A stretch of 64,000 bases of DNA from Candidatus Poribacteria bacterium (GTDB lineage: Bacteria > Poribacteria > WGA-4E > PCPOR2b). Location of the stretch: contig OZ242315.1 in the NCBI GenBank assembly GCA_965207975.1, positions 5,975,197-6,039,196 on the forward strand, given 5' to 3'. Shown in pieces: positions 15,897-37,772 of this stretch; the first letter of the stretch is position 1; each line of letters opens with the position of its first letter. The translations under genes and the position numbers were made by a program. Under the pieces are notes generated by a model. The model was given only the letters and a program-made list of their open reading frames with translations. It was not told where the DNA came from and searched no databases.

Positions 15897-17531
15897 TCAA
15901 GGTACTGTTGCTACAGCCCCAAACGCATCTGCAACCCACACCAGATCCAACATATTAACTACCCCATCTCCATTAATATCTGTTGCCAAATCCGGGCCTT
16001 CACTACCAAAAGCGGACGCAACCAAAACCAAATCTAGGAGATTCACGATGCCGTCGTCGTTGACATCCGTTGCAATCGGTGGTGGTTCTGTATCGGAGAT
16101 AACGTTAAAGATTACCGGATCATCTATAACCAATCCCGCAGCGGTTGCGGAAACGGTGTGTATTCCCAAATTCTCTCCTAGCGTGAGTGTGCTCTGCGCC
16201 CTGCCGTTTTGATGGGTGGTTGTGTGTGTGACACTGAGCGTTCCATCGCCGGCAGTTACGGCAAATGTCACCGGAACCCCCTCAAACGCGGAACCGTACT
16301 CATCTCGGATTTCAACGACAAATGGGTTCAGCATTACAGAGGGGGAACCGCGCTGATAACCTGATATTCCCAAGATTGTTGTTGGGGTACGGTGGCGAAA
16401 GCGGACGCTAACGCCTCTCGTTCTTAGGACCGGGATGTGTGTGTTAATCGATAGATAGCTCAGGGGATTTCCTCGCAGCGCAACCACGTCTTCAGCTCCC
16501 AATCCTGTATTTGCGACTAGGGTTGAGATATCCGATATGAAGTTATTATCAATCCACAGCCATTTAAGATTAGTCAATCTTGATAGAGGTGAAATGTCCG
16601 ATATGGAATTGTGCACGAGATCTAACTCCATCAGATTGATTAATCCTGCCACCGGCGAAATATCAGATATTAGGTTGCCTCCAAGATCTAGATCTATCAA
16701 GTTGGTCAAGTCTGATACCACTGAAATATCGGATATTGCGTTGCCTCCTAGGCGCAGTGTTGTCAGATTGGTCGAGCCTAACAACACTGAAATGTCGGAT
16801 ATTGCGTTGTCTCCAAGATTCAGTATCCTCAAGTTGGTCAAGCCTGATATTATCGAAATGTCGGATATTGTGTTGCCTCTTAGACGCAGTGTTGTCAGGT
16901 TGGTCAAGCCTGATACTATCGAAATGTCGGATATTGCGTTGTCTCCAAGATCTAACCGTCTCAGATTACTTAATTCTGCTATGGGTGAAATGTCTGATAT
17001 CATGTTGTATCCAAGATTCAGTTTTATCAGGTTAGTTAATCCCACTAAAGGTGACATATCGGATATAGAATTTTCCCAGAGATCCAGTTCTGTCAGGTCA
17101 GTCAATTTTGCTATAGGTGACATATCGGATATAGAGTTTTCTGAGAGAGATAGTCGTTTCAGATGAGTTAATTCCACTATAGGTGAAATGTCGGATATTG
17201 CGTTGCTTCCAAGTCCCAGTTGTGTAAGGTTAGTTAATCCCGCTAGAGGCGAAATATCGGATATAGAGTTGTTCCAGAGATCCAGTTCTGTCAGGTTGGT
17301 TGCAAACTCGAGCCCGGCCAAATCGCTTATGCTAGCTTCATCTGCTTCAAGGTAAGTCAAAGTTTCCATCTCTGCCACGGTGATTGTGGCACCTGATGTC
17401 TTACCGAAGGCGGCTTCGACGACAGCGCGGAGGTTGGGGTCGGGGATGTTCACTGTTTGTGCCGTTGTCGTCAACGGAATTGAGATGCAGATTAACAGGA
17501 AAAAAGTGAGACGAAACATTTGTGTTCTCAT
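15897..17531 (-). CDS. Secreted internalin-like leucine-rich-repeat protein with tandem dockerin-type Ca-binding repeats; a paralogue of 18982-21177 that lacks the T9SS C-terminal domain
   Basis: Signal peptide MRTQMFRLTFFLLICISIPLTTTAQ; about 15 22-residue LRR units (LTNLTxLxLxxNxISDISPLAGL); C-terminal VNDDGIVNLLDLVLVASAFG...DINGDGVVNMLDLVWVADAFG (dockerin type I pattern). Confidence 0.75.
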   Translation of the reverse strand: MRTQMFRLTFFLLICISIPLTTTAQTVNIPDPNLRAVVEAAFGKTSGATITVAEMETLTYLEADEASISDLAGLEFATNLTELDLWNNSISDISPLAGLTNLTQLGLGSNAISDISPIVELTHLKRLSLSENSISDMSPIAKLTDLTELDLWENSISDMSPLVGLTNLIKLNLGYNMISDISPIAELSNLRRLDLGDNAISDISIVSGLTNLTTLRLRGNTISDISIISGLTNLRILNLGDNAISDISVLLGSTNLTTLRLGGNAISDISVVSDLTNLIDLDLGGNLISDISPVAGLINLMELDLVHNSISDISPLSRLTNLKWLWIDNNFISDISTLVANTGLGAEDVVALRGNPLSYLSINTHIPVLRTRGVSVRFRHRTPTTILGISGYQRGSPSVMLNPFVVEIRDEYGSAFEGVPVTFAVTAGDGTLSVTHTTTHQNGRAQSTLTLGENLGIHTVSATAAGLVIDDPVIFNVISDTEPPPIATDVNDDGIVNLLDLVLVASAFGSEGPDLATDINGDGVVNMLDLVWVADAFGAVATVP

Positions 17532-18981: not shown

Positions 18982-21177
18982 CTACTTGAGAATCGTCATC
19001 TTCCGTGTGGCAGAATAATCGCCCGCTGTAAGGGTGTAAAAGTAAGTGCCACTTGCCACAGGTTCGCCGAATTCATTTTTGCCATCCCAATAGGCGGCAC
19101 GGCTACGGGTCTGATATATACCTGCGGGCTGATGTCCGAAGGCTAACTGCCGAACTGCTTGTCCGCTTGTGTCGTAAATAGTCAAGGTGACATCTGCATC
19201 CTTTGCGAGATTATACGGTATCCACGTCTCTGGATTGAACGGATTCGGATAGTTGAGCAACAAAACAGTTTCTTTCGGTATCAGTGTTGCAAGAAGTTGC
19301 TCTAGAAACAAAATGCCTCTTAGAGACGTTGCATCTGTGAGGTCTAGTTGTTGTGCTTGGAAAAGCCACCACTTTACATCTGCTGCGATCAACATTTCAA
19401 GTGCTTGTGCCGACGGTGCGGCCTCCGCAGCTCCAAACGCATCCGCAACCCATACCAAATCCGAAATATTAACTACCCCATCTCCATTAACATCCGTTGC
19501 TATATCCGGGACCTTGCTCCCGAATGTGGACGCAACCAAAACCAAATCTAGAAGATTCACGACACCGTCGTCGTTGACATCCGTTGCAATCGGTGGTGGT
19601 TCTGTATCGGAGATAACGTTAAAGATTACTGGATCATCTATAACCCATCCCGCAGCGGTTGCAGAAACGGTGTGTATTCCCAAATTCTCTCCTAGTGTGA
19701 GCGTGCTCTGCGCCCTGCCGTTTTCGTCAGTAGTTGTGTGTGTGGCACTGAGTCTGCCGTCACCGGCAGTCACGGCAAACGTGACCGGAACCCCCCCAAA
19801 CGCAGAACCGTACTCATCTCGCACTTCAACGACAAATGGTTTCAGCGTTACAGAGGGGGAGCCGCGCTGGTAGCCTGAGATTTTCAAGATTGCCGAAGGG
19901 GTACGGTGGCGAAAAATTACCTTAACTCGTCTTTCTTTTAAAATTGGGATGTGTGTGTTAATCGATGGGTAGCTCAAGGGATTGCCTCGCAGCTCAACTT
20001 CATCTGCATACCCCAACCCTGTATTTGCTACCAACGCTGAGACATCCAATATAGAGTTATTCGCAAGGTATAACCATGTCAGATGAGTCAATCCTGTCAC
20101 AGCCGAAATATCAGATATGGAGTTATTCGCAAGGTATAACCATGTCAGATGAGTCAATCCCGCCACTGGTGAAATATCGGATATAGAGTTGCCTTCAAGA
20201 TCGAGATCTGTCAGATGAATCAATCCCACCACAGGCGAAATATCAGATATAGAATTGCCTCCCAGATATAGCAATGTCAGCTTGGTTAATCCGGCTGTCG
20301 CCGATATATCGGATACCGAGTTCTCCCCAAGATCTAGCTCTTTGAGGTCGGCTAATCCCATCACTGCTGATATATCCAACACTGCGTTGTCCCGAAGAGA
20401 CAACATGGTCAGGTTAGTCAATCCTGCTAGGGGCGAAATATCGGATATAGAGTTACCATCCAAATACAGCTGTGTCAAGCTGGTTAACTCTGCCGCAGCC
20501 GAAATATCTGCTATCAAGTTACTCCCCAAAAACAGCGATGTCAGATTAGTTAATCCCGCTAGGGGCGAAATATCGGATACCGAGTTCTTTGAAAGACGTA
20601 GTGCTATCAGGTTAGTCAACCCTGCTATGGGTAAAATATCGGGTATAGAGTTGTATCTTAAATCCAACTCTATCAGTTTGGTTAATCCCGCCACGGGCGA
20701 AATATCAGATATAGAGTTGCCTCCGAAGAATAACTTAGTCAGATTAGTTAATCCCACCACGGGCGAAATATCGGATATAGAGTTATCCCAAAGGTCTAGC
20801 CGTGTTAGATTAATCAACCCTGCTACAGGCGAAATATCGGATATAGCATTGCGTCCAAGAGATAGCTTTGTCAGGTTAGTTAATCCCGCCACGGGCGAAA
20901 TATCGGATATAGAGTTATCCCAAAGATACAGTCGTGTCAAATTAGTCGCGAACTCGAGTCCGGTCAAATCGCTTATGCTAGCGTCCTGTCCTTCAAGGCG
21001 GGTCAAAGTCCCCATCTCTGCTACAGTGATTGGGTCCCCCGATGCTTTACGGAGAGCGGATTCGATAACAGCGCGGAGGTTCGGGTCGGGAAGGTTTACC
21101 GTTTGCGCCCTTGTCGGCAACGGAATCGAGACGCAAATTAGCAGGAAAAAAGTGAGACGAAAAAATTGTGTTTTCAT
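18982..21177 (-). CDS. Secreted internalin-like LRR protein with dockerin-type repeats and a T9SS-type C-terminal sorting domain (Por_Secre_tail)
   Basis: Signal peptide MKTQFFRLTFFLLICVSIPLPTRAQ; about 17 LRR units; VNDDGVVNLLDLVLVASTFG...DVNGDGVVNISDLVWVADAFG; C-terminal LLLNYPNPFNPETWIPYNL...GTYFYTLTAGDYSATRKMTILK. Confidence 0.8.
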   Translation of the reverse strand: MKTQFFRLTFFLLICVSIPLPTRAQTVNLPDPNLRAVIESALRKASGDPITVAEMGTLTRLEGQDASISDLTGLEFATNLTRLYLWDNSISDISPVAGLTNLTKLSLGRNAISDISPVAGLINLTRLDLWDNSISDISPVVGLTNLTKLFFGGNSISDISPVAGLTKLIELDLRYNSIPDILPIAGLTNLIALRLSKNSVSDISPLAGLTNLTSLFLGSNLIADISAAAELTSLTQLYLDGNSISDISPLAGLTNLTMLSLRDNAVLDISAVMGLADLKELDLGENSVSDISATAGLTKLTLLYLGGNSISDISPVVGLIHLTDLDLEGNSISDISPVAGLTHLTWLYLANNSISDISAVTGLTHLTWLYLANNSILDVSALVANTGLGYADEVELRGNPLSYPSINTHIPILKERRVKVIFRHRTPSAILKISGYQRGSPSVTLKPFVVEVRDEYGSAFGGVPVTFAVTAGDGRLSATHTTTDENGRAQSTLTLGENLGIHTVSATAAGWVIDDPVIFNVISDTEPPPIATDVNDDGVVNLLDLVLVASTFGSKVPDIATDVNGDGVVNISDLVWVADAFGAAEAAPSAQALEMLIAADVKWWLFQAQQLDLTDATSLRGILFLEQLLATLIPKETVLLLNYPNPFNPETWIPYNLAKDADVTLTIYDTSGQAVRQLAFGHQPAGIYQTRSRAAYWDGKNEFGEPVASGTYFYTLTAGDYSATRKMTILK

Positions 21178-21257: not shown

Positions 21258-22167
21258 TATAGTAGACGCAAGAAATAACGGGACAATAGTTTAGAAGTAT
21301 GTTATCCTGTTTGCATTATGGCACATTCATCAGATTTACGCACACGCGTCCTTCAATTCATAGAAAATGGTGGCAGTAAAACAGAAGCGGCAAAACGGTT
21401 CAAAGTCGGTCGAACTGCGATTTACCGATGGCTCAATGACCCAGACCCACTCACACCGGGCAAACCGGGTCCCCGAAAACCGAGACTACTTGACCCAACG
21501 GCACTGGCTGAACATGTCAAGGCACACCCTGACCAAACCCTTAAAGAACGCGCCACACACTTTGGGGTTTCACCCGCCTGTGTCGGCTATGGACTCAAAA
21601 GACTCGGCTACACGCGTAAAAAAAAACGGTTGGATATAAGGAGCAATGTCCAGAAAAACGACAAGCCTATCAGGAGCAACTCGCAACGGCGAAAGCATCA
21701 GGCAAAACGCTGATTTACCTCGACGAGACCGGTTTTACAGATGAAACGTTTAGAAGTCATGGCTATGCCCCCCGGGGACAATGTGTCCAGGGGTTGATAC
21801 CCAGCCAAAAGACCCGCACCACCACTTTGATAGTGGCACAACTGAATAATAAGTTGATTGCCCCAAAGTTAATATCGGGCAGTTGTAATGCACAACGGTT
21901 TAATACATGGCTTGATGAAGCGTTATCGCCACATTTAGATGCCAACAGTCTCGTGATAATGGATAATGCACGCATTCACAAGACCACCGAGACCCAAGCA
22001 TTGATACAAGCCTGTGGTGCTAAGGTGTTATACTTGCCCCCGTATTCGCCGGATTATAATCCCGTTGAACAAAAGTTTGCCAATATAAAGAGAGTCCGGT
22101 CATACAATGCGGATAAGCCCATTGAGGAGATTATCAATATGTATCGTTAATTGTTAAATCTACTATA
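21258..22167 (+). mobile_element. IS630-family insertion sequence (about 910 bp) with imperfect terminal inverted repeats tatagtaga... / ...tctactata and flanking TA
   Basis: Left end ctaTAGTAGACGCAAGAAATAACG (21257-21280) against the reverse complement of the right end (22153-22177), about 18/25 matches; it interrupts the otherwise duplicated LRR upstream region. Confidence 0.55.
21318..22150 (+). CDS. IS630/Tc1-mariner-family DDE transposase, two frames joined by a -1 shift within the A9 run at 21618-21626 (programmed frameshift or pseudogene)
   Basis: N-terminal HTH part (frame 0, to 21713) plus C-terminal catalytic part in the -1 frame (open from 21620): YLDETGF ... IMDNARIHK ... LPPYSPDYNPVEQ (DDE triad context). 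Confidence 0.75.
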
Positions 22168-24902: not shown

Positions 24903-25760
24903 ATGGCAGCCTTAGAAGAAATCAAAATTGGTAATGGGCGGATTATCAAAGGGGACTGTCTCTCAGTTATGGATAATTTTCCCGACAACCATTTTATGCT
25001 TGGGTTCACCTCGCCTCCCTACCTGAACGCGATCAATTACGAGGAGCATATTGAAAAACTGCACGGGGCCAAAGCACGATGGGAGCGGGAAGATATATCC
25101 TACGAGGAATATCGGCGTTTTCTGGAGAATCGGTTCAAGGCGTTGCTGCGAATTACAAAGCCGGGGGGACATAATGTCGTAAATATTGCACCGGTCCTAT
25201 GGAACGGTACGCGCACTGCCCTCCCTTTTCATTTTGTCAGCTGGCTTGAACAAATTGGGTGGCAATTCAAGGAGGATATTATCTGGGAAAAGCCGGTTGC
25301 GAGGGATAGGCGATCAGGGGTTTTGTTACAGCATCCCTATCCCGGATATTACTACCCTAGCTTGGTTGCCGAATATATTTTTGTCTTTCAGAAACCTGCC
25401 GATAAGAAAAGTCAGAACAACATTTACTGGAATAGAAGTGAGGAAGAGAAAACAAGGAATGCAATTGACCTCAAGGACTATCAAGGCGAGAAGAGCAAAA
25501 ACGTTTGGAAAATCCGTCCATTAGCCCCCCAAGAAAATTTGCATCCCTGTCCATTTCCGTTGGAACTCGCGGAACGGGTCGTCCAGTTTTACTCTTATAA
25601 GGGAGATTCGGTGATTGACATCTTTGCCGGAAGTGGACAGACAAATTGTGCCGCGGAGAAACTAGGTAGAGCGCATGTCGGCATTGAAACGCAACAGAAA
25701 TACATAGATTATGCGGTTGAACAGCTTCGTCCAATTGTTGATCAAGGACAGTTGTTTTAA
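24903..25760 (+). CDS. Beta-class DNA amino-methyltransferase (N6-adenine or N4-cytosine; N6_N4_Mtase fold), M1 of an M-R-M triplet
   Basis: Motif IV SPPY (FTSPPYLNAINYE) precedes motif I FxGxG (IDIFAGSGQT), the beta-class order; 22 bp after ribH. Confidence 0.85.
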   Translation: MAALEEIKIGNGRIIKGDCLSVMDNFPDNHFMLGFTSPPYLNAINYEEHIEKLHGAKARWEREDISYEEYRRFLENRFKALLRITKPGGHNVVNIAPVLWNGTRTALPFHFVSWLEQIGWQFKEDIIWEKPVARDRRSGVLLQHPYPGYYYPSLVAEYIFVFQKPADKKSQNNIYWNRSEEEKTRNAIDLKDYQGEKSKNVWKIRPLAPQENLHPCPFPLELAERVVQFYSYKGDSVIDIFAGSGQTNCAAEKLGRAHVGIETQQKYIDYAVEQLRPIVDQGQLF

Positions 25761-25787
25761 CCTTATTAGAGGTGTAACGAGAACCTG

Positions 25788-26849
25788 ATGGATATTTTCG
25801 CTAGGATCACTGGAGTAAAATATACCCCACTTCTGTGCAGCAAACTTAAATCTTTCAGCTATAAGGATTTTGACGCAACACTTTCAGACAAAGCAACTTT
25901 CATTCTACAGATTGATCCAACCAAGCAGATTGCTTTAAGCTGCTGGGTTTCACCAAAAAGGACACGGTCTTACCCGTATTCAAGGGTCTATGATACATTG
26001 GGCTTTTCTGGCAAGAAAGCAACAATAATTCCAATTTTGAAGGATGAGGGTAAACAGGGCGATCGAGACTTTCTCCAATGGGATACAATCTCTTTAATGA
26101 GTTTGTTGGGCGTTTACGTGATAATTGGCTACTATGCTGATGCTTCAAAAAGCACAAGATACACGCATAAAATCACGGGACAAAAGTTTAATTCAGAGCA
26201 CATCATGAGCGAAATTGATCGGTTGATGTCTTATCAATCCGATGCTCTGCATTGGAACATAACGCAAGTCGAAGGTATCGGCGAAATTGGTTCGCAAGCG
26301 TTGAACGCCTATTCGGTTATCTCTGAAAAACTAGACGTGGAAATGCACTCTTGGGAGTCTGCGGAACGTCGAATCAATATACTTCGTGAAGGTCAGGCAG
26401 AGTTTAAAACACTATCAAGGAACTTGGCAAGGCAGGCACAGGCAAGAGAGAGTATCACGACACAGCCCAAAGAGCACATAGAGGGAATCAAAGGGAAGCT
26501 AACCATCAAAAATTATCTTGGTGGCAATTATTATTTGACCTGTGATGAGGTTGAAATCCATGGGGAGGAAATCTATCTCGTTGAAGCGAAGCATACGAAC
26601 AAAGATGAGCTGCCTTCCCTCGGTGATATAAAAGATGGTTTGGTGAAAATGATACTATTTACAAACTTGGAAAACCTAAAAGTTGATGAGAGAGATTACA
26701 ATCCTGTGCCAGTTTTGAAGTTGACGACGGGTGAGGGATTCAGTCTTAACTCGCTTAACCGCCCGCAGCAAAACCGTCTTACGAATCTAAAGCAGGAAGC
26801 CGAAACCAATGGATTTCGGATTATGATCAATGATGGATTTTTCACGTAA
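25788..26849 (+). CDS. Candidate restriction endonuclease (putative PD-(D/E)xK) sandwiched between the two methyltransferases
   Basis: Position between M1 and M2 with 28-bp and 12-bp gaps; a possible D...ExK in ...TCDEVEIHGEEIYLVEAKH...; no family was recognised. Confidence 0.4.
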   Translation: MDIFARITGVKYTPLLCSKLKSFSYKDFDATLSDKATFILQIDPTKQIALSCWVSPKRTRSYPYSRVYDTLGFSGKKATIIPILKDEGKQGDRDFLQWDTISLMSLLGVYVIIGYYADASKSTRYTHKITGQKFNSEHIMSEIDRLMSYQSDALHWNITQVEGIGEIGSQALNAYSVISEKLDVEMHSWESAERRINILREGQAEFKTLSRNLARQAQARESITTQPKEHIEGIKGKLTIKNYLGGNYYLTCDEVEIHGEEIYLVEAKHTNKDELPSLGDIKDGLVKMILFTNLENLKVDERDYNPVPVLKLTTGEGFSLNSLNRPQQNRLTNLKQEAETNGFRIMINDGFFT

Positions 26850-26860
26850 TGGGATAGAGT

Positions 26861-27754
26861 ATGAAAGCAACTGTGCTGCGTGGAGATTGTGCGTCGCTAT
26901 TAGACCGACAGAACGCCACTTTTGAAGATGTTGATCTCACCTTTCTCGATCCGCCTTTTAATCAAGATAAAGGCTACAACGAGTGGGATGATAACTTGCC
27001 TGAAGCACAGTATTGGAAGTGGATGGACGACGTGTGCACAAAGATTTACGACCGAACTGCTTCGGGTGGTGCAATCTATTTCATGCAGCGCGAGAAGAAA
27101 ACCGAGGCTGTGCTACGGTGTTTACGCGAGTCTGGATGGACGTTTCAAAACCTGATTATTTGGAAAAAGAAAACGTCCGCTGTCCCCGGGATGAATCGTT
27201 TTGGCAAACATTACCAGATCATTGCGTTTGCAACGAAAGGGGAGCGTCCACGGATATTTCATCGCTTGCGGATCAATCCACCACTCCCTGCGGGCTACAA
27301 ATATGAACGGGAAAATGGCATGTTTGTCACCGACGTGTGGGACGACATTCGTGAGTTGACATCGGGCTATTTTGCTGGAGATGAGGCACTGCGGGATGCA
27401 GAGGGAAATCGCTTGCACAAGCAACAGGCACCGATTCAACTTCTCCTTCGGATAATCCTCTCTTCGACAAATCCCGGCGATGTTGTATTAGATCCATTTG
27501 CGGGATCGGGGACAACGTTGGTCGTTGCAGAACAGTTAAGGCGAAAATCAATTGGTATTGAACTCGATAAGGTCAACATCGAAATTATTCGGAAAAGACT
27601 TGCTGAAAAAAGAGAAGCCGATGATATTTCAGGTTCATTCAACGATTATGAATGCACACCGGACTTAGAAGCCATTTGGGGCCGGGCTAAATCGAGAGCC
27701 GCGGCGACTCTCAAACAGGGAAAACTTTTTGAGTCAAATCAAAATCGTGTTTGA
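26861..27754 (+). CDS. Beta-class DNA amino-methyltransferase, M2
   Basis: Motif IV DPPF (LTFLDPPFNQD) then motif I (VLDPFAGSGTTLVVAEQL). Confidence 0.85.
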   Translation: MKATVLRGDCASLLDRQNATFEDVDLTFLDPPFNQDKGYNEWDDNLPEAQYWKWMDDVCTKIYDRTASGGAIYFMQREKKTEAVLRCLRESGWTFQNLIIWKKKTSAVPGMNRFGKHYQIIAFATKGERPRIFHRLRINPPLPAGYKYERENGMFVTDVWDDIRELTSGYFAGDEALRDAEGNRLHKQQAPIQLLLRIILSSTNPGDVVLDPFAGSGTTLVVAEQLRRKSIGIELDKVNIEIIRKRLAEKREADDISGSFNDYECTPDLEAIWGRAKSRAAATLKQGKLFESNQNRV

Positions 27755-28299: not shown

Positions 28300-29705
28300 A
28301 TCAAAAATTCCTTTAGGGGTAAAACCCAAAGGTTTACCTTTGGGATACCCCCCTGCTTTAGCATTTTTTAATTTTGCAGTTAAAATATGATATGTTTGTC
28401 TTGGGTCTGGTGGGAGCGTTTGCCCCCTATCGCCCGATAGGATCTCTCGCGTGCTTGTGAAACAGGATATAAAGGACAAAGCCGACTCCGATGAAAACCT
28501 ACAAGTTCAAGATGTATAGCAATCACGGGAATCGTGAGTTGCACAGGACGATAGAGGGTCATGCTGATGTGTGGAATCACTGTGTCGCGCTTCAGCGTCG
28601 GTACTATTGCCTCTATGGCAAGTATATCAGCAAGTTTCGTTTGATAAATCATATATCGAAGCTGAAACGACTTGCTAAGTTTGCTCATTGGAATCAGCTA
28701 CCCAGCCAATCCATTCAAGACGTGGCAGCACGGATTGACAAAGGGTATAAGGCGATGTTTGAAGCGCGTGCGAAAGGCAAGGCGTGGGGGAGCCCTCGTT
28801 TTAAGCCACGCGGCAAATACAAGTCATTCACGCTGCTTCAAGCGGGTTGGCAATTGCTTACCAGTAACAAGATTCGTATTGGCAAGAGTGTCTACCAATA
28901 CTTTAAGTCTCGTGATATTCGTGGCACTCCGAAACGTTGCACAATCAAACGGGACGCTATCGGCGATGTCTATATCTGCATTCTCACCGACTATGTAGAA
29001 CCTGACCTGAATCGAGTCATGACGGGTAAAATCGCGGGGTTTGATTTCGGTCTGAAAAGGTATCTCACGGGTCACAATGGACACGACATAGAATCACCTC
29101 AGTTTTTCAAACGCAGCCTCAACGCTATCAAACGTGCAAACCGCGCGCATTCACGAACCAAGAAAAAGTCAAATAATCGGGAAAGAACAAGGCTCGATTT
29201 AGCACGGAAGCACCGTAAGATTGAACGACAACGAGAGGACTTCCACTGGAAGTTGGCACACCAACTGACCGATGAATACGACGAGATACGGCTCGAAGAT
29301 TTGAACCTGCAAGGTATGAAGTCGCTATGGGGACGCAAAGTCAGTGACTTAGGGTTTGCCGATTTTGTCAAAAAGTTGGTGTATATCGCTAAGAAAAAAG
29401 GTGTCAAACTCACCTTCATTGATAAGTGGCATCCAACGAGTAAAACTTGTTCGGTCTGCGGTGTGGTCAATGAAGCGTTGAATCTGCGTGATAGAACTTG
29501 GCAGTGTAACGATTGTGGCACGGTGCATGACCGGGACCGCAACGCTGCGATTAACATTTTTCGGGTTGGGGCGTCAACCCATGAAGGAGAGGACGTAAGT
29601 CCCGATTCGTCGGGCAATCCTTGTTGATAGCACAATTCGACTCCTATTAGCAACGGAATCGTAAGAATCCCAAGCCTTTAGGTTTGGGAGTACGTCAATA
29701 ACGTG
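28300..29705 (+). mobile_element. IS200/IS605-family element carrying only tnpB (IS1341-like), with subterminal LE/RE-like hairpins; the boundaries are approximate
   Basis: Hairpin cccaaaggtttacctttggg (28325-28344) upstream and the similar cccaagcctttaggtttggg (29669-29688) downstream of tnpB; no tnpA was found. Confidence 0.5.
28491..29627 (+). CDS. tnpB: TnpB (OrfB_IS605) RuvC-like RNA-guided endonuclease family protein
   Basis: RuvC-I IAGFDFGLK, RuvC-II region ...EIRLEDLNLQGMK, zinc finger CSVCG...CNDCG, RuvC-III HDRDRNAAINI. Confidence 0.85.
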   Translation: MKTYKFKMYSNHGNRELHRTIEGHADVWNHCVALQRRYYCLYGKYISKFRLINHISKLKRLAKFAHWNQLPSQSIQDVAARIDKGYKAMFEARAKGKAWGSPRFKPRGKYKSFTLLQAGWQLLTSNKIRIGKSVYQYFKSRDIRGTPKRCTIKRDAIGDVYICILTDYVEPDLNRVMTGKIAGFDFGLKRYLTGHNGHDIESPQFFKRSLNAIKRANRAHSRTKKKSNNRERTRLDLARKHRKIERQREDFHWKLAHQLTDEYDEIRLEDLNLQGMKSLWGRKVSDLGFADFVKKLVYIAKKKGVKLTFIDKWHPTSKTCSVCGVVNEALNLRDRTWQCNDCGTVHDRDRNAAINIFRVGASTHEGEDVSPDSSGNPC

Positions 29706-30354: not shown

Positions 30355-31887
30355 TTGCTCATGCTAACTTTCTTCCTGATATTCGTTGTTCTACTGATTA
30401 ACCTGTTCGTTTACGGCTTGGATAGCCCACAGAACTACGGTGTTGTCTCGCATCTGTACTATGGGGTCATCATCCTCGCGGGGATATACGACAATCGTCG
30501 TGGGCAGTATCTACTGCTTGCGTGCACGACGCTAGCCAATTGGATACATGCTGGGATTTATTATGAGCAGATCCATTTGGGCGTGGTTGCAATTTTATAT
30601 CCTATCATCGCGTATTTCATTGTTCGCACCATCCAGTTATTCAAGGCACAACGCGCCACTACGGAAGCGCAGCTTCAGCAGATAGATCAAGCCAACACGG
30701 ATTTGGAAAAACGGGTGCGAGATCTATCTACCCTTTTTGAAGTTGGTGATACAGCAAACACCGCTCTGGAATTAGATGAACTGTTCCAAAAGATTATCAA
30801 GACGCTTGCCAACCGGATGGGAGTATACCGGGGTGCCCTGAGAATTTGGAAGGGTGGCGAGCCGGTCAAAGAGGTCGAGGCAGTTTTTGGGTTGACAGAG
30901 GCGGAGCTCCGGCGCGGCACGGACAGTCAAATTGATCTTATCCAACAACAGGTACTCCAATCTGGGCAACCGATTGGTGTGCCGCACAGTCGCACGCCCC
31001 TTCAGCAGATGGAGTTTCCAAATGCGAAATCGGTGCAGTCTAAAGATCCGATAGCTTTCTGGTGTGTCCCGGTGGTGGTGGATGAACAGGTAATTGGTAC
31101 GCTGACAATTGATAAAGCATCGGACGAATTTTCGATTGAGGACGATATTCGTATTTTGACGATTATCGCTGCCATTGTGGCACAGCGCGTTAAGATTCAG
31201 CAGATGATCGACTCGCTGGTGCAATCCGAACGACTCGCAACGCTTGGCAAACTTGCGACGACGGTTGCCCACGAGGTGAGAAATCCACTGGGCGGGATCC
31301 GCGGTGCAGCGCAGCTGCTCCAATTTGAAGGCGAATCGAATTCAGAGATTCAAGAGTATATTCAGGTCATTATCAGAGAGGTGGATCGGTTGAATCGTGT
31401 GGTTGAGCAGCTACTTGTGTCCGGCAACCCACGGACCGCTGGTGTCAAGTTAGGTAGTATTAGCGACTTAATCGACAATAGCCTCTCAATCTGTCAGCCG
31501 GAGTTAGATCGGGACAATATCCGTGTTGAAAAGTGTTTTGCTGACGATTGTCCGTTGATTTCCGTGAATGACGACGGGATAACGCAGGTATTGCTGAACC
31601 TATTTCGTAACGCAATTGAATCGATGGAAGATGGGGGTATCTTGACGATTCAAACCACCTATAATTCCGCGATTCAGATTGTTCAAATTTATATCACGGA
31701 TACCGGGCGGGGTATACCGCCGGATGTTGCCTCACGTTTGTTCGATCCGTTTTACACAACGAAACAGAAAGGGACGGGGCTTGGGCTTGCGATTAGCCAG
31801 CAAATCGTTGAGGAGCACGGTGGCACTATTGAAGTTGATATAACAGAAACTCCAGGGGCAACGTTTGTTGTTACATTGCTGGTTTGA
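30355..31887 (+). CDS. Sensor histidine kinase (N-terminal TM segments, GAF-like domain, HisKA, HATPase_c)
   Basis: H-box ATTVAHEVRNPLGGI; N/G boxes ...LLNLFRNAIES..., DTGRGIP, GTGLGLAISQQIVEEHGG. Confidence 0.8.
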   Translation: MLMLTFFLIFVVLLINLFVYGLDSPQNYGVVSHLYYGVIILAGIYDNRRGQYLLLACTTLANWIHAGIYYEQIHLGVVAILYPIIAYFIVRTIQLFKAQRATTEAQLQQIDQANTDLEKRVRDLSTLFEVGDTANTALELDELFQKIIKTLANRMGVYRGALRIWKGGEPVKEVEAVFGLTEAELRRGTDSQIDLIQQQVLQSGQPIGVPHSRTPLQQMEFPNAKSVQSKDPIAFWCVPVVVDEQVIGTLTIDKASDEFSIEDDIRILTIIAAIVAQRVKIQQMIDSLVQSERLATLGKLATTVAHEVRNPLGGIRGAAQLLQFEGESNSEIQEYIQVIIREVDRLNRVVEQLLVSGNPRTAGVKLGSISDLIDNSLSICQPELDRDNIRVEKCFADDCPLISVNDDGITQVLLNLFRNAIESMEDGGILTIQTTYNSAIQIVQIYITDTGRGIPPDVASRLFDPFYTTKQKGTGLGLAISQQIVEEHGGTIEVDITETPGATFVVTLLV

Positions 31888-31896
31888 GCAAAGTCA

Positions 31897-32786
31897 GTGA
31901 ATACAGATATGGCGAATGAAAGAAACCTCTCATTAACTGAAGAAGAAATTCGCGAGTTAATCGCTAATGAATTTCCGCGCCTAATAACCCAAAATCCCGA
32001 GATTCGTTATGAGCTGATCGGTGTTATGTCGGAGACTTTTGCCAAAAAAGAGGATATAACAGCGATTTTGAACGAGCTCAGGCAGATGCGTGAGGAATCT
32101 GAACGCCAGCGGGTTGAATTCCGGCAGGAGATGCAAGTTCTACGCGAGGAGTCCGAGCAGCGATGGGCTGAATTCCGGCAGGAGATGGAATCCCTACGTG
32201 CAGAATCCAATCGGTTGCGCGAGGAGTCCGAGCAGCGATGGGTTGAATTCCGGGAACAGATGGAAGCCTTACGCGAGGAGTCTAATCGGTTGCGTGAGGA
32301 GTCCGAGCAGCGTTCCGGCAGGAGATAAAGGACCTACGCGAAGAGTCCAGCGCGTCACGTGCATATCTAGATGATGAATTAAGGCGATTTCACCATACCG
32401 TTCAAGGCTTGGGCGCACGATGGGGATTGCAGTCTGAAGAAGCATTCCGCAGTGGGCTCGCTGCAATTTTGACGGATGAACTCGGTTTCCAGGTGGAACG
32501 GTACGAAGGTTATGACGATTCTGGATCGGTTTTCGGACAGCCGGAACAGGTGGAGATGGATGTAATCATCCGGAACAGTTTAGTTATTGCAATTGAAATT
32601 AAATCATCGGTCAGCCGCAGTGACCTTGCCCTTTTTCAAAGGAAAGTGGCATTCTTTGAGCAGACGGAAAGTGTAACGGTAAATCGAAAATTCTTCATAT
32701 CTCCATTTGTTGATCCCAACGCTGTTGGATTGGCGGCACGGATGGGTATCGAACTCTACACCCACAGCTTAGATATTATAATTTAG
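31897..32786 (+). CDS. Coiled-coil repeat protein with a C-terminal DUF3782-like PD-(D/E)xK domain, interrupted by a frameshift (two ORFs: 31897-32328 and 32298/32409-32786)
   Basis: 75-bp (25-aa) tandem repeats LREESEQRWxEFRxQMExLRxESNR; the third copy lacks 10 nt (atgggctgaa) at 32312/32313, which shifts the frame. The downstream frame is open from 32298 and encodes ...EMDVIIRNSLVIAIEIKSS... (an E/D...ExK-like motif). Confidence 0.5.
32146..32324 (+). repeat. 75-bp tandem repeat x2.4 inside the coiled-coil gene; the third unit carries a 10-nt deletion
   Basis: 32146-32220 and 32221-32295 are about 90% identical; 32296-32324 is a truncated third copy. Confidence 0.8.
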
Positions 32787-32857: not shown

Positions 32858-34312
32858 ATGACACACACAATTCTTATTGCTGACGACGACGATAGCATCC
32901 GCTTTGTTTTGGAGAAGGCTCTTCAGAAGGAAGGGTATCACACATTTTCCGCGCGAAACGGGAAAGAAACGGTTGATCTTCTCCGCTCAGAAGCGATTGA
33001 CACGATTTTCCTCGATATTTTTATGCCTGATGTCAACGGGTTAGATCTGATTGAAGAGCTTCAGGAGATCAATAAAGCTGCATCAATTATTATTATCACC
33101 GCTCACGGGACAACGCAAACGGCGATTGAAGCTGCAAAGCGACACGCTTATGACTACGTGACCAAGCCTTTTGATCTCCAAGAGATTATACCTTTGGTGT
33201 CCCGTGCGGTATATGCTGCGGATCAAACAAAGGCGGCACTGGCGGAAGATTCGCGACCAGAAGATAGTGTTGTGCCCCAAAACGGGGAGGAGGTGGGCAC
33301 TCAGATTGTAGGTGAGAGCGATGCGATGCACACAATCTACTTGACCATCGGACGGGCGGCGATCAGCGACGAAACGGTTCTCATTATGGGAGAGAGTGGC
33401 ACAGGTAAGGAATCAATCGCCAAAGCGATTCACCAGAATAGCAAGAGAGCGGAAGAGGAGTTTGTGGTGGTGGATTGTAGCGCGATTCCCTCGGACTTGA
33501 TTGAAAGTGCACTCTTTGGGCATGTTAAAGGGGCGTATACGGGTGCCGATACGGCACGCCAGGGGAAATTTGAGCAGGCGGACCGGGGAACGATTTTTCT
33601 GGACGAGGTTGGTGAATTGCCGATAGAGGTGCAGATGAAACTGCTGCGTGTTCTGCAAGAGCGGGAGGTCGAGCCGATTGGGTCAAATGAGATTCGCAAG
33701 GTTGATGTGCGGGTGGTTGCTGCGACAAATCGACGGCTTGATTTGGCAATTCAGGACGGATCGTTTCGGGAAGATCTGTTTTATCGGCTCAATGTGGTGC
33801 CAATCTTTTTGCCTCCGTTGCGTGAGCGGAAAGAGGATATCCCTGATCTCGTGGATTTTTTTATGTCCCGTTATGCTCAGGACTACGGTCAGCCTAAAGG
33901 GACAATTTCGCCGGAGGCGTTCAAGCTGCTGATGGTTTATGATTGGCCCGGAAACGTCCGCGAACTTGAAAACAGCTTGAAGCGTGCGCTCGTTATGTGT
34001 GCTGGCCAGGTCCTCCTCCTGGAACACTTCCCGGAGCTTTCTGGCAGCGCAGTTCCCTCTGTTACGAAGGCACCGACAGGGTTCGAGAGTCGCCTTGCTT
34101 CGCTTATGTCAGAGCGTGTGGATGAACTTATCGAATCTGGCACCTCCTCGGGATCACTTCATGCAGAGATTCGTGTTGCTGTTGAGAAGCCGCTTTTTGA
34201 GTCTATTCTCCAGCGGACCAGCTGGAATCGTAGGAAGGCGGCTGAGATTCTTGGAATTAATCGGAATACACTCCATTCTAAGATGGAGGAGTATGGGATT
34301 CAAAGGCGTTAG
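32858..34312 (+). CDS. Sigma-54-dependent response regulator (NtrC/Fis family: REC, AAA+ sigma-54 activator, HTH)
   Basis: REC domain ILIADDDDSIRFVL...DIFMPDVNGLDL; Walker A GESGTGKE; GAFTGA-like GAYTGA; C-terminal HTH AAEILGINRNTLHSKMEEYGI. Confidence 0.85.
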   Translation: MTHTILIADDDDSIRFVLEKALQKEGYHTFSARNGKETVDLLRSEAIDTIFLDIFMPDVNGLDLIEELQEINKAASIIIITAHGTTQTAIEAAKRHAYDYVTKPFDLQEIIPLVSRAVYAADQTKAALAEDSRPEDSVVPQNGEEVGTQIVGESDAMHTIYLTIGRAAISDETVLIMGESGTGKESIAKAIHQNSKRAEEEFVVVDCSAIPSDLIESALFGHVKGAYTGADTARQGKFEQADRGTIFLDEVGELPIEVQMKLLRVLQEREVEPIGSNEIRKVDVRVVAATNRRLDLAIQDGSFREDLFYRLNVVPIFLPPLRERKEDIPDLVDFFMSRYAQDYGQPKGTISPEAFKLLMVYDWPGNVRELENSLKRALVMCAGQVLLLEHFPELSGSAVPSVTKAPTGFESRLASLMSERVDELIESGTSSGSLHAEIRVAVEKPLFESILQRTSWNRRKAAEILGINRNTLHSKMEEYGIQRR

Positions 34313-34326
34313 GTGAGCGTGCGTCT

Positions 34327-34611
34327 ATGGATATTGGAAAGGTCATCGGGACCATCGTCGCAACTCGAAAAGATCCGAGTTTGGTCGGTTATCGTCTGCT
34401 GGTCGTACAACCCCTTGATGCGGAGGGCGAGTCGGTCGGCGATCCGGTCACAGCTGTTGATATACAGGGTGCAGCCGGGTATGGTGAATTGGTCTATTTC
34501 GTTACCGGTGGAGATGCCGCATTTGTGTCAGCGGAACGCGCAATGCCTGTTGATGTCGCTGTAGTAGGCATTGTTGATTCAATCACCGTAACTGAAGAAG
34601 CGGAGGAATGA
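34327..34611 (+). CDS. Bacterial microcompartment vertex (pentamer) protein, EutN/CcmL/PduN family
   Basis: MDIGKVIGTIVATRKDPSLVGYRLLVVQPLDAEGESVGDPVTAVDIQGAAGYGELVYFVTGG...PVDVAVVGIVDSI matches the PduN/EutN consensus (M.IA.VIG.VV.T.K...L.G.KLLLV...VA.D.VGAG..E.V...G...P.D..IVGIVD); 14 bp after the regulator gene. Confidence 0.8.
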   Translation: MDIGKVIGTIVATRKDPSLVGYRLLVVQPLDAEGESVGDPVTAVDIQGAAGYGELVYFVTGGDAAFVSAERAMPVDVAVVGIVDSITVTEEAEE

Positions 34612-34889
34612 TGTACATCGCAAAGGTCATTGGCAAAGTGGTTTCGGTCATTAAGCATCCTGCCTATGACAATCGAACCCTTCTGCTTGTTCAACCGTTG
34701 AACCTGAAATCGCAGTTGGTGCGAACACCAACAATTGCTGTTGACTATGTTGGGGCAGGAGAGAACGATATAGTACTTGTTGGAGCGGGACCGGGCGTTG
34801 CGCAGGAGGTTTTTGAACTTGAAACGGCTCCTATAAGGGAACTAGTTATGGGAATTATCGATCGGTTTGATGTGTCGAATGAAGCGTGA
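34608..34889 (+). CDS. Second BMC vertex protein, EutN/CcmL/PduN family (a paralogue of the preceding gene)
   Basis: MMYIAKVIGKVVSVIKHPAYDNRTLLLVQPL...IAVDYVGAGENDIVLVGAGPG...IRELVMGIIDRF; ATGA overlap with the upstream gene. Confidence 0.8.
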   Translation: MMYIAKVIGKVVSVIKHPAYDNRTLLLVQPLNLKSQLVRTPTIAVDYVGAGENDIVLVGAGPGVAQEVFELETAPIRELVMGIIDRFDVSNEA

Positions 34890-34927: not shown

Positions 34928-35704
34928 GTGACATTATCGCAGGTTTGCCTATCTGCTCATTTGTCGAAAGGACACGACACTTTGTTTATTCCATTGCCGA
35001 GTACACCATCGACGCAGCAATCCTTTAAGCCGCGCGCGGTCCAATTTTTAATTGTTACAAATTTATTGGTTTTTGTATACCAGCTTTATGCGCTCTATCA
35101 AGGGGTGTCGTTGGCAGATGTATCTGGCGCGATTCCCAACCAGATTATGCACCGCCATTCGTTCCTACCACCGCTTCCAAACCTTTCGGATAAGACACTC
35201 CTCACCTCCCTGTTTTTACACGATGTCCACATTTTACAGGGAGGATTTATCCACATTATTGGTAACATGCTGTATCTCTCGGCTTTTGGTCCAACCCTTG
35301 AAAGTATGATTGGGAGTCTGAAATTCCTACTGTTCTACCTATTGTGCGGCGTATTGGCAACGCTCTGCTACGTATTGACTTACTACGATTCTGGCTTGCC
35401 TCTTATTGGCGCGAGCGGTGCAATCGCCGGCGTAATGGGAGCACACTTTATCGCCTGTCCCAAGGCGCGCATTCGATGCCTTCTCTTTATCTATATCATT
35501 TCTGTGCCCGCGATTGTGTTGCTGTTACCTTGGATCGCCATCCAGCTAGTCAATGTCTATTTTTCGTTCCAAAGTGCCTCTATTGCTTGGGTAGCGCATG
35601 TCGGTGGGTTTGGGGTGGGGATGTTTCTTATCGGAAAATTCCAACAAACTTGGTTTCGTCCTAAACAAGAAGTGTCCAGAATTCGTCCTTATGTTCGATA
35701 CTAA
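34928..35704 (+). CDS. Rhomboid-family intramembrane serine protease
   Basis: GxSG motif GASGAIAGVMGAHF and the downstream His in AHVGGFGVG; multiple TM helices. GTG start, so the exact start is uncertain. Confidence 0.7.
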   Translation: MTLSQVCLSAHLSKGHDTLFIPLPSTPSTQQSFKPRAVQFLIVTNLLVFVYQLYALYQGVSLADVSGAIPNQIMHRHSFLPPLPNLSDKTLLTSLFLHDVHILQGGFIHIIGNMLYLSAFGPTLESMIGSLKFLLFYLLCGVLATLCYVLTYYDSGLPLIGASGAIAGVMGAHFIACPKARIRCLLFIYIISVPAIVLLLPWIAIQLVNVYFSFQSASIAWVAHVGGFGVGMFLIGKFQQTWFRPKQEVSRIRPYVRY

Positions 35705-35743
35705 TGGAAGTCATTCTGTTAAAAAGGATTGCGAGGTAGACAG

Positions 35744-36337
35744 ATGAACGCGATAAAACAGTTGGGATTTTCTCTCTTGTTATTTGCTTGTATCAGCTTA
35801 TCCGGTTGCGTTTGGTCCTCTTTATTGGCGAACTCATGGAGTGAAAACTTCGCGCTGGCAAGCTACGGGTCAAAGGCGAACCATCCAGCACTCAACGATG
35901 GGAGGCTAGATACCGTTGCAGCGGTAGCAGCGAAAAATGAGCGAATCTTTACGTTGCGGTTCCCAGAGGTCAAACCTGTTCGGAAGATTATCATTCATAA
36001 CGGCAATCTCTTTTGGTTTCATGTGGACTATTGGGATCTTGATCAATTTGAGTGGAAAACAGTCCACTCTGTCCGTCAGCTGCGGGATATTGGCGATAGT
36101 CGGGCACCGTCAGAAATTGTCATTGATCGATTAAATTGCCGAACAAATACTATCCGAATCAACGTGTCTCGTACGGTCGATGATAACGTTGTAACAAAGG
36201 TTATGTTATCGCCTGGGGACAAGGTTGTCGATCGAAGAACCACAATGGCGGGAGCGTATTATCCACATTTCCGTGTTATCCAGCCAGCATGGGCACAGGT
36301 CCGCGAGATCGAGGTGTATCATCTGGCATCGAAGTAG
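35744..36337 (+). CDS. Lipoprotein of unknown function
   Basis: MNAIKQLGFSLLLFACISLSGC (lipobox); GAGGT RBS 6 nt before ATG 35744. Confidence 0.45.
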   Translation: MNAIKQLGFSLLLFACISLSGCVWSSLLANSWSENFALASYGSKANHPALNDGRLDTVAAVAAKNERIFTLRFPEVKPVRKIIIHNGNLFWFHVDYWDLDQFEWKTVHSVRQLRDIGDSRAPSEIVIDRLNCRTNTIRINVSRTVDDNVVTKVMLSPGDKVVDRRTTMAGAYYPHFRVIQPAWAQVREIEVYHLASK

Positions 36338-36343
36338 GTTCGA

Positions 36344-37024
36344 TTAGCGTTTGATTGCAACTGATACCCCATCGCGGAGCGGAATGATTGTCGTGAACAC
36401 ATCGGGGGAACTGTAGAGCAGCCGTGTCAACTCTTTGACCCCGACTGTCGTATTGTGCACCCACTGTTCTTCTTCATCAAGTCCTTGTGTATCTCTTTCG
36501 GTATCGTATGTGACGACACGTCCCAGCCATAGCATATTGTCTGTGATAAATAGCCCACCACTTCTGAGCCGTGGAATCGCCTTACGAAACGCTTCGGGAT
36601 ATCCGTCCTTATCGATATCGTTGTAGATGATGTCAAATTCCCCTTCAGTTTCATCGATAATCTCGAGTGCGTTCCCAACGCGATAATCGATGCGATCGGC
36701 GATCCCTCCACGCGTCAGATAACCCGCCGCACAATCTGCGTTTTCCTGCGAGCCGTCGGTGCAGATGATGCCCGCTTCCGGCTGTCGCAGCGCCTTTGCC
36801 ATCCAATACGCCGAATAGCCGAAACCGGATCCCATCTCGAAAATCCGGGTCGGATTTGTCAGCAGTACCAATTGGTGTAACACACGCCCAACGAGCGGTC
36901 CCACAATCGGGAAACGGTTTTGCCGTGCGTATGCCTCCATCTCCGTTAGCACCTCGTCGCGTTCGGGGATGATATCGAGTAGGTAATCGTCAATTGACGG
37001 ATGAAGCACATCCAAACGTTCCAT
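36344..37024 (-). CDS. Class I SAM-dependent O-methyltransferase (family 3, caffeoyl-CoA-OMT-like)
   Basis: ...LLDIIPERDEVLTEMEAYARQNRFPIVGPLVGRVLHQLV...IFEMGSGFGYSAYWMA...; start placed at the ATG (MERL) with GGAGGG RBS; the track ORF extends to 37099. Confidence 0.8.
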   Translation of the reverse strand: MERLDVLHPSIDDYLLDIIPERDEVLTEMEAYARQNRFPIVGPLVGRVLHQLVLLTNPTRIFEMGSGFGYSAYWMAKALRQPEAGIICTDGSQENADCAAGYLTRGGIADRIDYRVGNALEIIDETEGEFDIIYNDIDKDGYPEAFRKAIPRLRSGGLFITDNMLWLGRVVTYDTERDTQGLDEEEQWVHNTTVGVKELTRLLYSSPDVFTTIIPLRDGVSVAIKR

Positions 37025-37040
37025 AAGTCCCTCCATTCTG

Positions 37041-37118
37041 CCTAAAAAAATAATGCGTAACAAGTGATACGTAAGGGCTTTTCTTTGAGTATGGTGCATT
37101 ACGTATTACATAGTCAGT
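37041..37118. repeat. Copy of the aatgcgtaa...cattacgtattacatag intergenic element
   Basis: Shares a 17-mer with 11441-11457. Confidence 0.5.
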
Positions 37119-37772
37119 AATGGGCATATCCTGTAGGATTGTATTCAGTATGCCATAAAATCATGTCCAAGTCTATATTTTCTTGTGAACCAAAGTCTTT
37201 AGATTACACCGTTAGCTTACCCATTTTTGACAAAGTAGGGATAGTAGAGACTGCAACTAGCGCACCATATCGCTCCAGTCGGCAGAGTTATTTTTTTGGA
37301 CGGAGGCTTTTTTCGTTGCATCATACCAGAAAACGTCAGCTTTTTGATTTTTCTGGCAAAATAACGCAAGTTGTTAGCCTCTGTTGACATTTATGTGAGG
37401 TGTGTCCTTAATTCGCCGAAAAACACCTAATAGTAGGGGCGAGGTTTCCTCGCCCAACGGGTTGGTGTTCAACCTATAAGTGGGTATTGAGTTACACACA
37501 TGTCGCCCCGCTGGGGCTTGGGCGTTGGTCAATTTGTTGTGCTTCTATACACATATCGCCTCTCTGGAGCTTTGAGGGTCAAACCATGAGCCCACCACTA
37601 CCAACTATCAGCGTGAAATAAGCAGTTTGACTAACTGGCATACGAAGGTTATACTACTGAGACGTGCTGTCAAATGTCAACACGCCCAGCAACGTGTGCT
37701 AAATTTAATGTAAAACAGATTGGAGAATGTCAAAAGTGTTACGGTGTATCTGCACAGCCCAGAGGAGGAGTT

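Follow-up and report, generated by a model that had tools for sequence, protein, structure and literature searches.

Organization of the locus

The window, i.e., the whole stretch of DNA that was analysed (64 kb), carries on its forward strand two short adjacent genes, referred to below as P1 (34327..34611) and P2 (34611..34889), which encode proteins of 94 and 92 amino acids (93 for P2 if read from 34608), both of the BMC-P (EutN/CcmL-fold) family of microcompartment pentamers. They stand at the 3' end of a same-strand block composed of riboflavin (rib) genes, hisH, a sensor kinase gene, a sigma-54 regulator gene, P1, P2, a rhomboid gene that is optional in related genomes, and a lipoprotein gene. 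The gene directly upstream of P1 (32858..34312, + strand) encodes an NtrC-type sigma-54 enhancer-binding response regulator, in which a receiver, an AAA+ sigma-54 interaction domain and a Fis-type helix-turn-helix are all present (Response_reg, Sigma54_activat, AAA_lid_14 and HTH_8 in Pfam), and whose sigma-54 contact loop reads GAYTGA, the canonical form being GAFTGA (residues about 222–227, window region 33480–33500). Its stop codon lies 14 nt before the P1 ATG, in agreement with a preliminary description of this DNA. Its scores were below every NCBIfam equivalog cutoff (486 bits vs. 559 for NtrC; 444 vs. 714 for AtoC), which ruled out its identification as an NtrC or AtoC equivalog.

The partner of this regulator is a membrane sensor histidine kinase (30355..31887, + strand; transmembrane region, GAF, HisKA and HATPase_c). 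Between the two lies a gene of the DUF3782 and PD-(D/E)XK_10 nuclease families (31897..32786, + strand), which is broken here into two open reading frames, 31897–32328 and 32409–32786. In a 97%-identical relative (L001, 7303–8460) the same gene is intact and encodes 385 amino acids; the split in the window may stem from a sequencing error or a frameshift, or mark a pseudogene. Among the best 80 of 188 relatives (see below), this insertion is restricted to the window's own clade, and it corresponds to the gene for a "hypothetical protein" by which kinase and regulator are separated in the single-cell genome SAG 4E (Kamke et al., 2014, PLoS One, PMC3909097).

Downstream of P2, the next genes are those that the preliminary description had named, a rhomboid protease and a lipoprotein. 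The rhomboid intramembrane protease (PF01694, E = 2.3e-27) occupies 34928..35704 on the + strand as the longest open reading frame, while the calls made for its orthologues suggest a start near 34985. The lipoprotein (35729..36337, + strand; 202 amino acids, lipobox LSGC) is of unknown fold, with no Pfam family and no match in a profile search of PDB sequences; as an exported protein, it is unlikely to be part of the shell.

Several mobile or repeat-containing elements were observed elsewhere in the window. At 24903–27754 (+ strand), a 353-codon open reading frame without Pfam match (25788–26849) has an N6/N4 DNA methyltransferase gene on either side. This arrangement resembles a restriction-modification island that includes a candidate endonuclease and has entered the region separating hisH from the riboflavin genes; in L001 the two methylase genes are adjacent and the 353-codon frame is missing. 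Just upstream of hisH lies a TnpB-type gene (28491–29627, + strand; OrfB_IS605 and a Cas12f1-like TNB domain), near which no flanking IS200 TnpA gene was noticed. An IS630-family transposase is split into a helix-turn-helix frame (21318–21713, + strand) and a truncated DDE_3 frame (21794–22150, + strand), and is either degraded or frameshift-dependent. Lastly, the riboflavin synthase gene is flanked by genes for two paralogous secreted proteins (15897–17531 and 18982–21177, both on the - strand) in which leucine-rich repeats are combined with Big_1 and dockerin domains; one of the two also has a FlgD_ig-type C-terminal domain. They belong to the class of eukaryote-like repeat proteins that is typical of sponge symbionts.

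Identity of the two proteins

Both proteins are full-length matches to the EutN_CcmL family (PF03319, gathering score 25), with 87.8 bits for P1 (E = 7e-25, residues 1–84) and 77.1 bits for P2 (E = 1.5e-21), profile positions 1–83 of 83 being covered. Their assignment to the BMC-P consensus in the preliminary description is thereby confirmed. They are single-domain proteins of the class of about 90–100 amino acids and share 39% identity. On these sequence comparisons, P1 and P2 are members of the family and paralogues of each other. Searches of PDB sequences returned BMC-P chains only, the top match being the shell pentamer of Haliangium ochraceum for P1 (5v74, E = 4.5e-14) and CcmL for P2 (2qw7, E = 3.8e-10). 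An AlphaFold2 model of P1 built from 54 homologues had a mean pLDDT of 69 with a poor C-terminal third, and the structures ranked 1–43 in a comparison with the PDB were BMC-P chains, at TM-scores of about 0.55–0.58; the model of P2, made from a single sequence, was unusable (pLDDT 49).

The two genes overlap, as had been proposed, while the form of the overlap has to be corrected. Orthologues of P2 open with MYIAK, the public gene call is of 92 amino acids, and a GGAGG lies 4 nt upstream of the ATG at 34611; for these reasons we place the start of P2 at this position. The overlap is probably one nucleotide long (TGATG) and not the ATGA given by the preliminary description. Whichever P2 start applies, the two genes are tightly coupled here.

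From a structural point of view, P1 and P2 differ from the proteins that define the primary type of vertex protein. In an alignment with four structurally characterised BMC-P proteins, the canonical G-S-(S/A)-A-R loop was missing from both. P1 keeps GT(I/V)VAT and has GGDA(A/I/V) in place of the loop, while P2 has GKVVSV for GTVV(S/A)T, GPGVAQE for GS(S/A)AR and PIRE for PVD. Neither protein has the combination of a GTVV(S/A)T...K strand and a G-S-(S/A)-A-R loop that is found in CcmL, EutN, GrpN and the H. ochraceum (HO) BMC-P. Within the pair, P2 is the more conserved and the more atypical paralogue. A carboxysome or Eut identity was rejected, since NCBIfam scores for P1 and P2 were far under the cutoffs for CcmL (74.5 and 61.8 vs. 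125), EutN (49 and 35 vs. 118) and CsoS4 (28 and 27 vs. 120). With the canonical loop missing and all equivalog scores under cutoff, P1 and P2 would fit accessory paralogues, of the "gray" and "orange" type, and not a primary vertex protein.

Shell and enzyme genes around the pair

When PduA, EutM and CcmK2 were used as tblastn queries, no hexamer-type shell gene (PF00936) was found in the 64 kb (best E = 0.79). Pfam scans of about 50 open reading frames likewise detected no PF00936, PduL or aldehyde dehydrogenase, and neither a class II aldolase nor any Eut/Pdu enzyme. The statement of the preliminary description that the window contains no BMC-H or BMC-T shell gene and no signature enzyme was borne out. 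The flanks free of shell and core enzyme genes extend over 34 kb upstream and 29 kb downstream of the pair. Canonical BMC loci span about 10–25 kb. The same picture was obtained by tblastn in the best 80 of 188 relatives, where a BMC-H-like gene was found within ±10 kb of the pair in 0 of 80 genomes (1.51 Mb examined).

Conservation of the locus in Poribacteria

The preliminary description had called for a comparison of gene order in related genomes. An alignment of P2 orthologues was scanned against 185,579 species genomes, which yielded 188 relatives, of which the best 80 were kept; window proteins were then compared by tblastn with the loci of these 80, to which all counts in this section refer. 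All of them are metagenome-assembled genomes of Poribacteria, many on closed chromosomes, and the closest homologues of the window proteins are likewise annotated as Candidatus Poribacteria.

The order hisH, kinase, regulator, P1, P2, optional rhomboid and lipoprotein is near-universal in this set. P1 lies directly upstream of P2 in 77 of 78 genomes, and the regulator gene is upstream on the same strand in 71 of 73, the kinase gene in 67 of 69 and hisH in 66 of 69. Downstream of P2, the lipoprotein gene is present in 76 of 78 genomes, with the rhomboid gene intervening in 27 of 78; where the latter is missing, the stop codon of P2 directly adjoins the start of the lipoprotein gene or overlaps with it. 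Orthologues are 56–98% identical for P1 (in 77 of 78 Poribacteria species genomes) and 77–98% identical for P2 across Poribacteria lineages.

Variation was nevertheless observed around this common plan. The gap between regulator and P1 ranges from 6 to 489 nt (median 89), apart from two loci in which insertions have widened it to 1.6 and 2.3 kb. P1 carries C-terminal extensions in several lineages and reaches, for example, 116 amino acids in L007. In L041, L059, L068 and other loci, P1 and P2 do not overlap and are spaced by up to about 400 nt, so translational coupling of the pair is not universal. One genome has P2 and the lipoprotein gene only. In the lineage of L002 and L069, P1, P2 and the rhomboid gene are found without a kinase or regulator gene nearby, divergent from a Ppx/GppA gene.

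Promoters and regulation of the pair

The conserved proximity of a two-component system invites the explanation that vertex supply is regulated, the kinase and the sigma-54 activator sensing a signal and directly switching on P1 and P2, so that shells would be capped or remodelled conditionally. The same-strand adjacency of regulator and P1 in 71 of 73 of the best relatives and the 14-nt gap in the window argue for it, in line with the two-component systems that also stand beside shell genes in the poribacterial BMC groups C and D (Kamke et al., 2014, PMC3909097). This linkage could, however, be mere inherited gene order, since the synteny of the pair with hisH and the rib genes is as strong as that with the regulator.

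Promoter scans did not favor direct activation. Forty regulator–P1 spacers of 60–600 nt from related loci were scored, out of 12, against the sigma-54 consensus TGGCACG-N4-TTGCW, with shuffled sequences as controls: only one spacer reached a score of at least 9, vs. 0.6 expected from the shuffles, and most of the 40 lacked GG-N10-GC altogether. In the window, no -24/-12 element was detected on the + strand upstream of the kinase gene, hisH, the regulator gene or P1. By contrast, sigma-70-like sites with a perfect TTGACA (TTGACA-N17/18-TAnnAT) were present in 9 of the 40 spacers, against an expectation of 1.2, and most of them lie some 60 nt upstream of the ATG. The L002/L069 lineage, which keeps the pair and the rhomboid gene without the two-component system, has TTGACA-N17-TAAAAT upstream of P1.

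One near-consensus match to the sigma-54 element (TGGnAC-N5-nTGCn) does exist inside P1 itself, where a GG-N10-GC is found 20 nt into the gene (34346–34361) and at the same place in 22 related loci. It arises from the codons of I-G-T-V-V-A, as any G-T-x-x-A peptide forces the motif, and it was rejected as a promoter, being a by-product of coding that cannot serve P1. Such G-T-x-x-A coding is a trap for sigma-54 promoter scans in BMC-P genes in general. Apart from this, the best intergenic sigma-54-like element near the regulator is TGGTGCGCTAGTTGCA (10/12), at 37267–37252 on the - strand, upstream of an O-methyltransferase gene (36344–37099, - strand); out of 17 related loci, just two (L016 and L021) have a near-identical copy at the same site, and the significance of the element is doubtful.

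Taken with the lineage that has no regulator, the lack of a -24/-12 promoter means that direct sigma-54 control is not supported, and it was rejected as the leading model, the window and the 40 spacers having offered only coding by-products and chance-level matches. We regard a regulated vertex supply of this kind as unlikely, and the control of the pair by the adjacent sigma-54 regulator, put forward in the preliminary description, could not be upheld. In the window's clade, read-through from the regulator gene is likely instead, given the 14-nt gap and the absence of any terminator-like site within it; transcripts of the pair would there be produced in this way, while for other clades transcription from a sigma-70-like promoter within the regulator–P1 spacer is probable.

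Function of the pair

The locus itself is already known from three studies (Axen et al., 2014; Kamke et al., 2014; Sutter et al., 2021). In single-cell genomes of sponge-symbiont Poribacteria, "BMC group B" was described as tandem pfam03319 genes that directly follow a histidine kinase gene and a sigma-54-specific Fis-family regulator gene; riboflavin genes precede this set, and a rhomboid gene is its neighbor (Kamke et al., 2014, Text S1/Table S3). Group A, a pfam00936 gene next to PduL, and group C, with a third pfam03319 gene, are found at other loci, and the totals were one PF00936 and three PF03319 genes in SAG 3G, and two and three, respectively, in SAG 4E (Kamke et al., 2014). All poribacterial loci were termed "satellite-like" (Axen et al., 2014), and a wider survey defined FRAG types, in which shell genes occur at up to six places (Sutter et al., 2021, Nat Commun, PMC8217296). 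Among these, FRAG2 comprises a triplet of BMC-P genes together with two BMC-H genes, with mostly poribacterial members (Supplementary Data 2 of that study), and one poribacterial "fadedGreen1" BMC-P, for instance, is entered as a FRAG2 satellite in the BMC-P tree of the survey. The view that a satellite with BMC-P genes only is unusual, expressed in the preliminary description, was overstated, since a description of precisely this locus dates from 2014 and such satellites define catalogued FRAG types. According to Sutter et al. (2021), gray and orange BMC-P are always found together, and it is unknown why three pentamer paralogues are present; a 2024 paper on the SPU compartment repeats the latter point.

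The neighborhood of the pair raises the question of a use other than the capping of an icosahedral shell. Its flanks consist of envelope genes (membrane kinase, rhomboid, lipoprotein) and not of metabolic ones, which goes against a plain role in a distant compartment. A divergent pair of pentamer-fold proteins could instead act with the kinase, rhomboid and lipoprotein in a structure that is associated with the membrane or linked to signalling. The changed loop motifs of both proteins, the conservation of the envelope genes and the overlap of the lipoprotein start with the P2 stop in many genomes are in line with such a structure, as is the localization of BMC-H in Poribacteria, whose signal was seen at the cell periphery, with a ring-shaped immunolabel at the membrane (Jahn, 2016). 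Yet the lipoprotein is exported and the rhomboid optional, which makes both of them less than evident as partners for a cytoplasmic protein. Moreover, the same pattern of a BMC-P triplet is present at loci that code for complete BMCs (HO, SPU and PVM), Poribacteria do have BMC-H and PduL according to the literature, and no positive sign of an alternative activity was found. We consider this non-canonical use improbable. The same low probability is attached to a role beyond shell capping in which P1 and P2 would form heteropentamers or nucleate a membrane-proximal BMC-like assembly, tied to the block of kinase, sigma-54 regulator and lipoprotein; if true, it would explain why, throughout the phylum, pair and hexamer genes have stayed apart. 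To our knowledge, polyhedral bodies have not been reported in Poribacteria.

That the pair is the edge of a canonical locus, with a complete BMC operon just beyond the 64-kb window, is very improbable in view of the 34-kb and 29-kb flanks free of shell and core enzyme genes, of the 0 of 80 best relatives with BMC-H within ±10 kb, and of published analyses that put poribacterial shell genes in separate loci.

We retain as probable a reading in which P1 and P2 supply two of the three BMC-P paralogues of a poribacterial metabolosome of the FRAG2 type, whose genes are dispersed; the pair would lie away from the hexamer/PduL locus and be weakly expressed. The BMC-H gene (beside PduL), the third BMC-P gene and an aldehyde dehydrogenase gene would lie at other sites of the chromosome, the co-occurrence of BMC-H being taken from the literature on related genomes. 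P1 and P2 would assemble as pentamers that close or modify the vertices of this distant shell, and they may correspond to the gray and orange accessory paralogues of BMC-P triplets. Twelve pentamers suffice per BMC shell. The output of the pair, whose two genes are presumably co-expressed, is probably low, which would suit a need for about 60 copies per shell. Expression data for SAG 3G point in the same direction: in Data S1 of Jahn (2016), values of 1047 FPKM for BMC-H, 324 for PduL and 300 for another PF03319 gene are given, and the group-B genes (2265146668-70) are not among the entries listed, which go down to about 134 FPKM; this sets an upper bound only and suggests low expression of the pair. 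Of the regulated supply of vertices to a distant microcompartment, as initially put forward, the distant supply agrees with earlier work (Kamke et al., 2014; Sutter et al., 2021), while its sigma-54 regulation is not supported, given the lack of such a promoter. The conserved gene order, the distance from hexamer genes and the absence of a sigma-54 promoter together make it more likely that accessory vertex proteins are supplied constitutively and at a low level than that a sigma-54 switch operates.

The finding of the pair as such adds little, the locus having been drawn and tabulated in 2014 and the FRAG2 class catalogued in 2021. What is new is, on the one hand, that the pair is fixed beside the kinase, the sigma-54 regulator and the lipoprotein in almost all Poribacteria species genomes among the best 80 of 188 relatives and, on the other hand, that within this set it is never found within 10 kb of a hexamer gene and has no sigma-54 promoter. 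These results touch on the open question of why many BMCs carry three BMC-P paralogues and of what FRAG compartments do. Closed chromosomes have now been identified in which the whole dispersed system can be mapped.

Comparison with known systems

The closest known system is poribacterial group B (Kamke et al., 2014, PMC3909097), whose architecture and organism group are those of the window and from which nothing substantive differs; the window represents another genome of the same clade, with the inserted DUF3782/PD-(D/E)XK gene split. FRAG2 (Sutter et al., 2021, PMC8217296) likewise shows dispersed shell genes and satellites of shell proteins only, with no recognisable enzymes, and the window locus, with its BMC-P genes, no BMC-H and no enzymes, has the composition of a FRAG2 satellite, an assignment that rests on taxonomy and architecture. 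The linkage to a two-component system and a lipoprotein is not discussed in the FRAG2 catalogue.

In the type I HO system of Haliangium ochraceum, which also provides the best solved relative of P1 (5v74), a satellite similarly contains a tandem BMC-P pair apart from the locus of BMC-H, BMC-T and the third BMC-P. There, however, the main locus is compact and the satellite carries an aldolase, whereas the pair of the window has neither a main locus nor an enzyme beside it. CsoS4A and CsoS4B of the alpha-carboxysome, as well as CcmL and EutN, have the fold and size of P1 and P2, and CsoS4A/B are also a pair of co-occurring vertex paralogues; unlike P1 and P2, all of these are encoded within main operons. 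The CcmK3/CcmK4 satellite of beta-carboxysomes, although made of hexamer (PF00936) paralogues without a two-component system where P1 and P2 are of the pentamer family, likewise consists of shell paralogues that are obligately distal, an arrangement thought to permit separate expression and tuning of shell properties.
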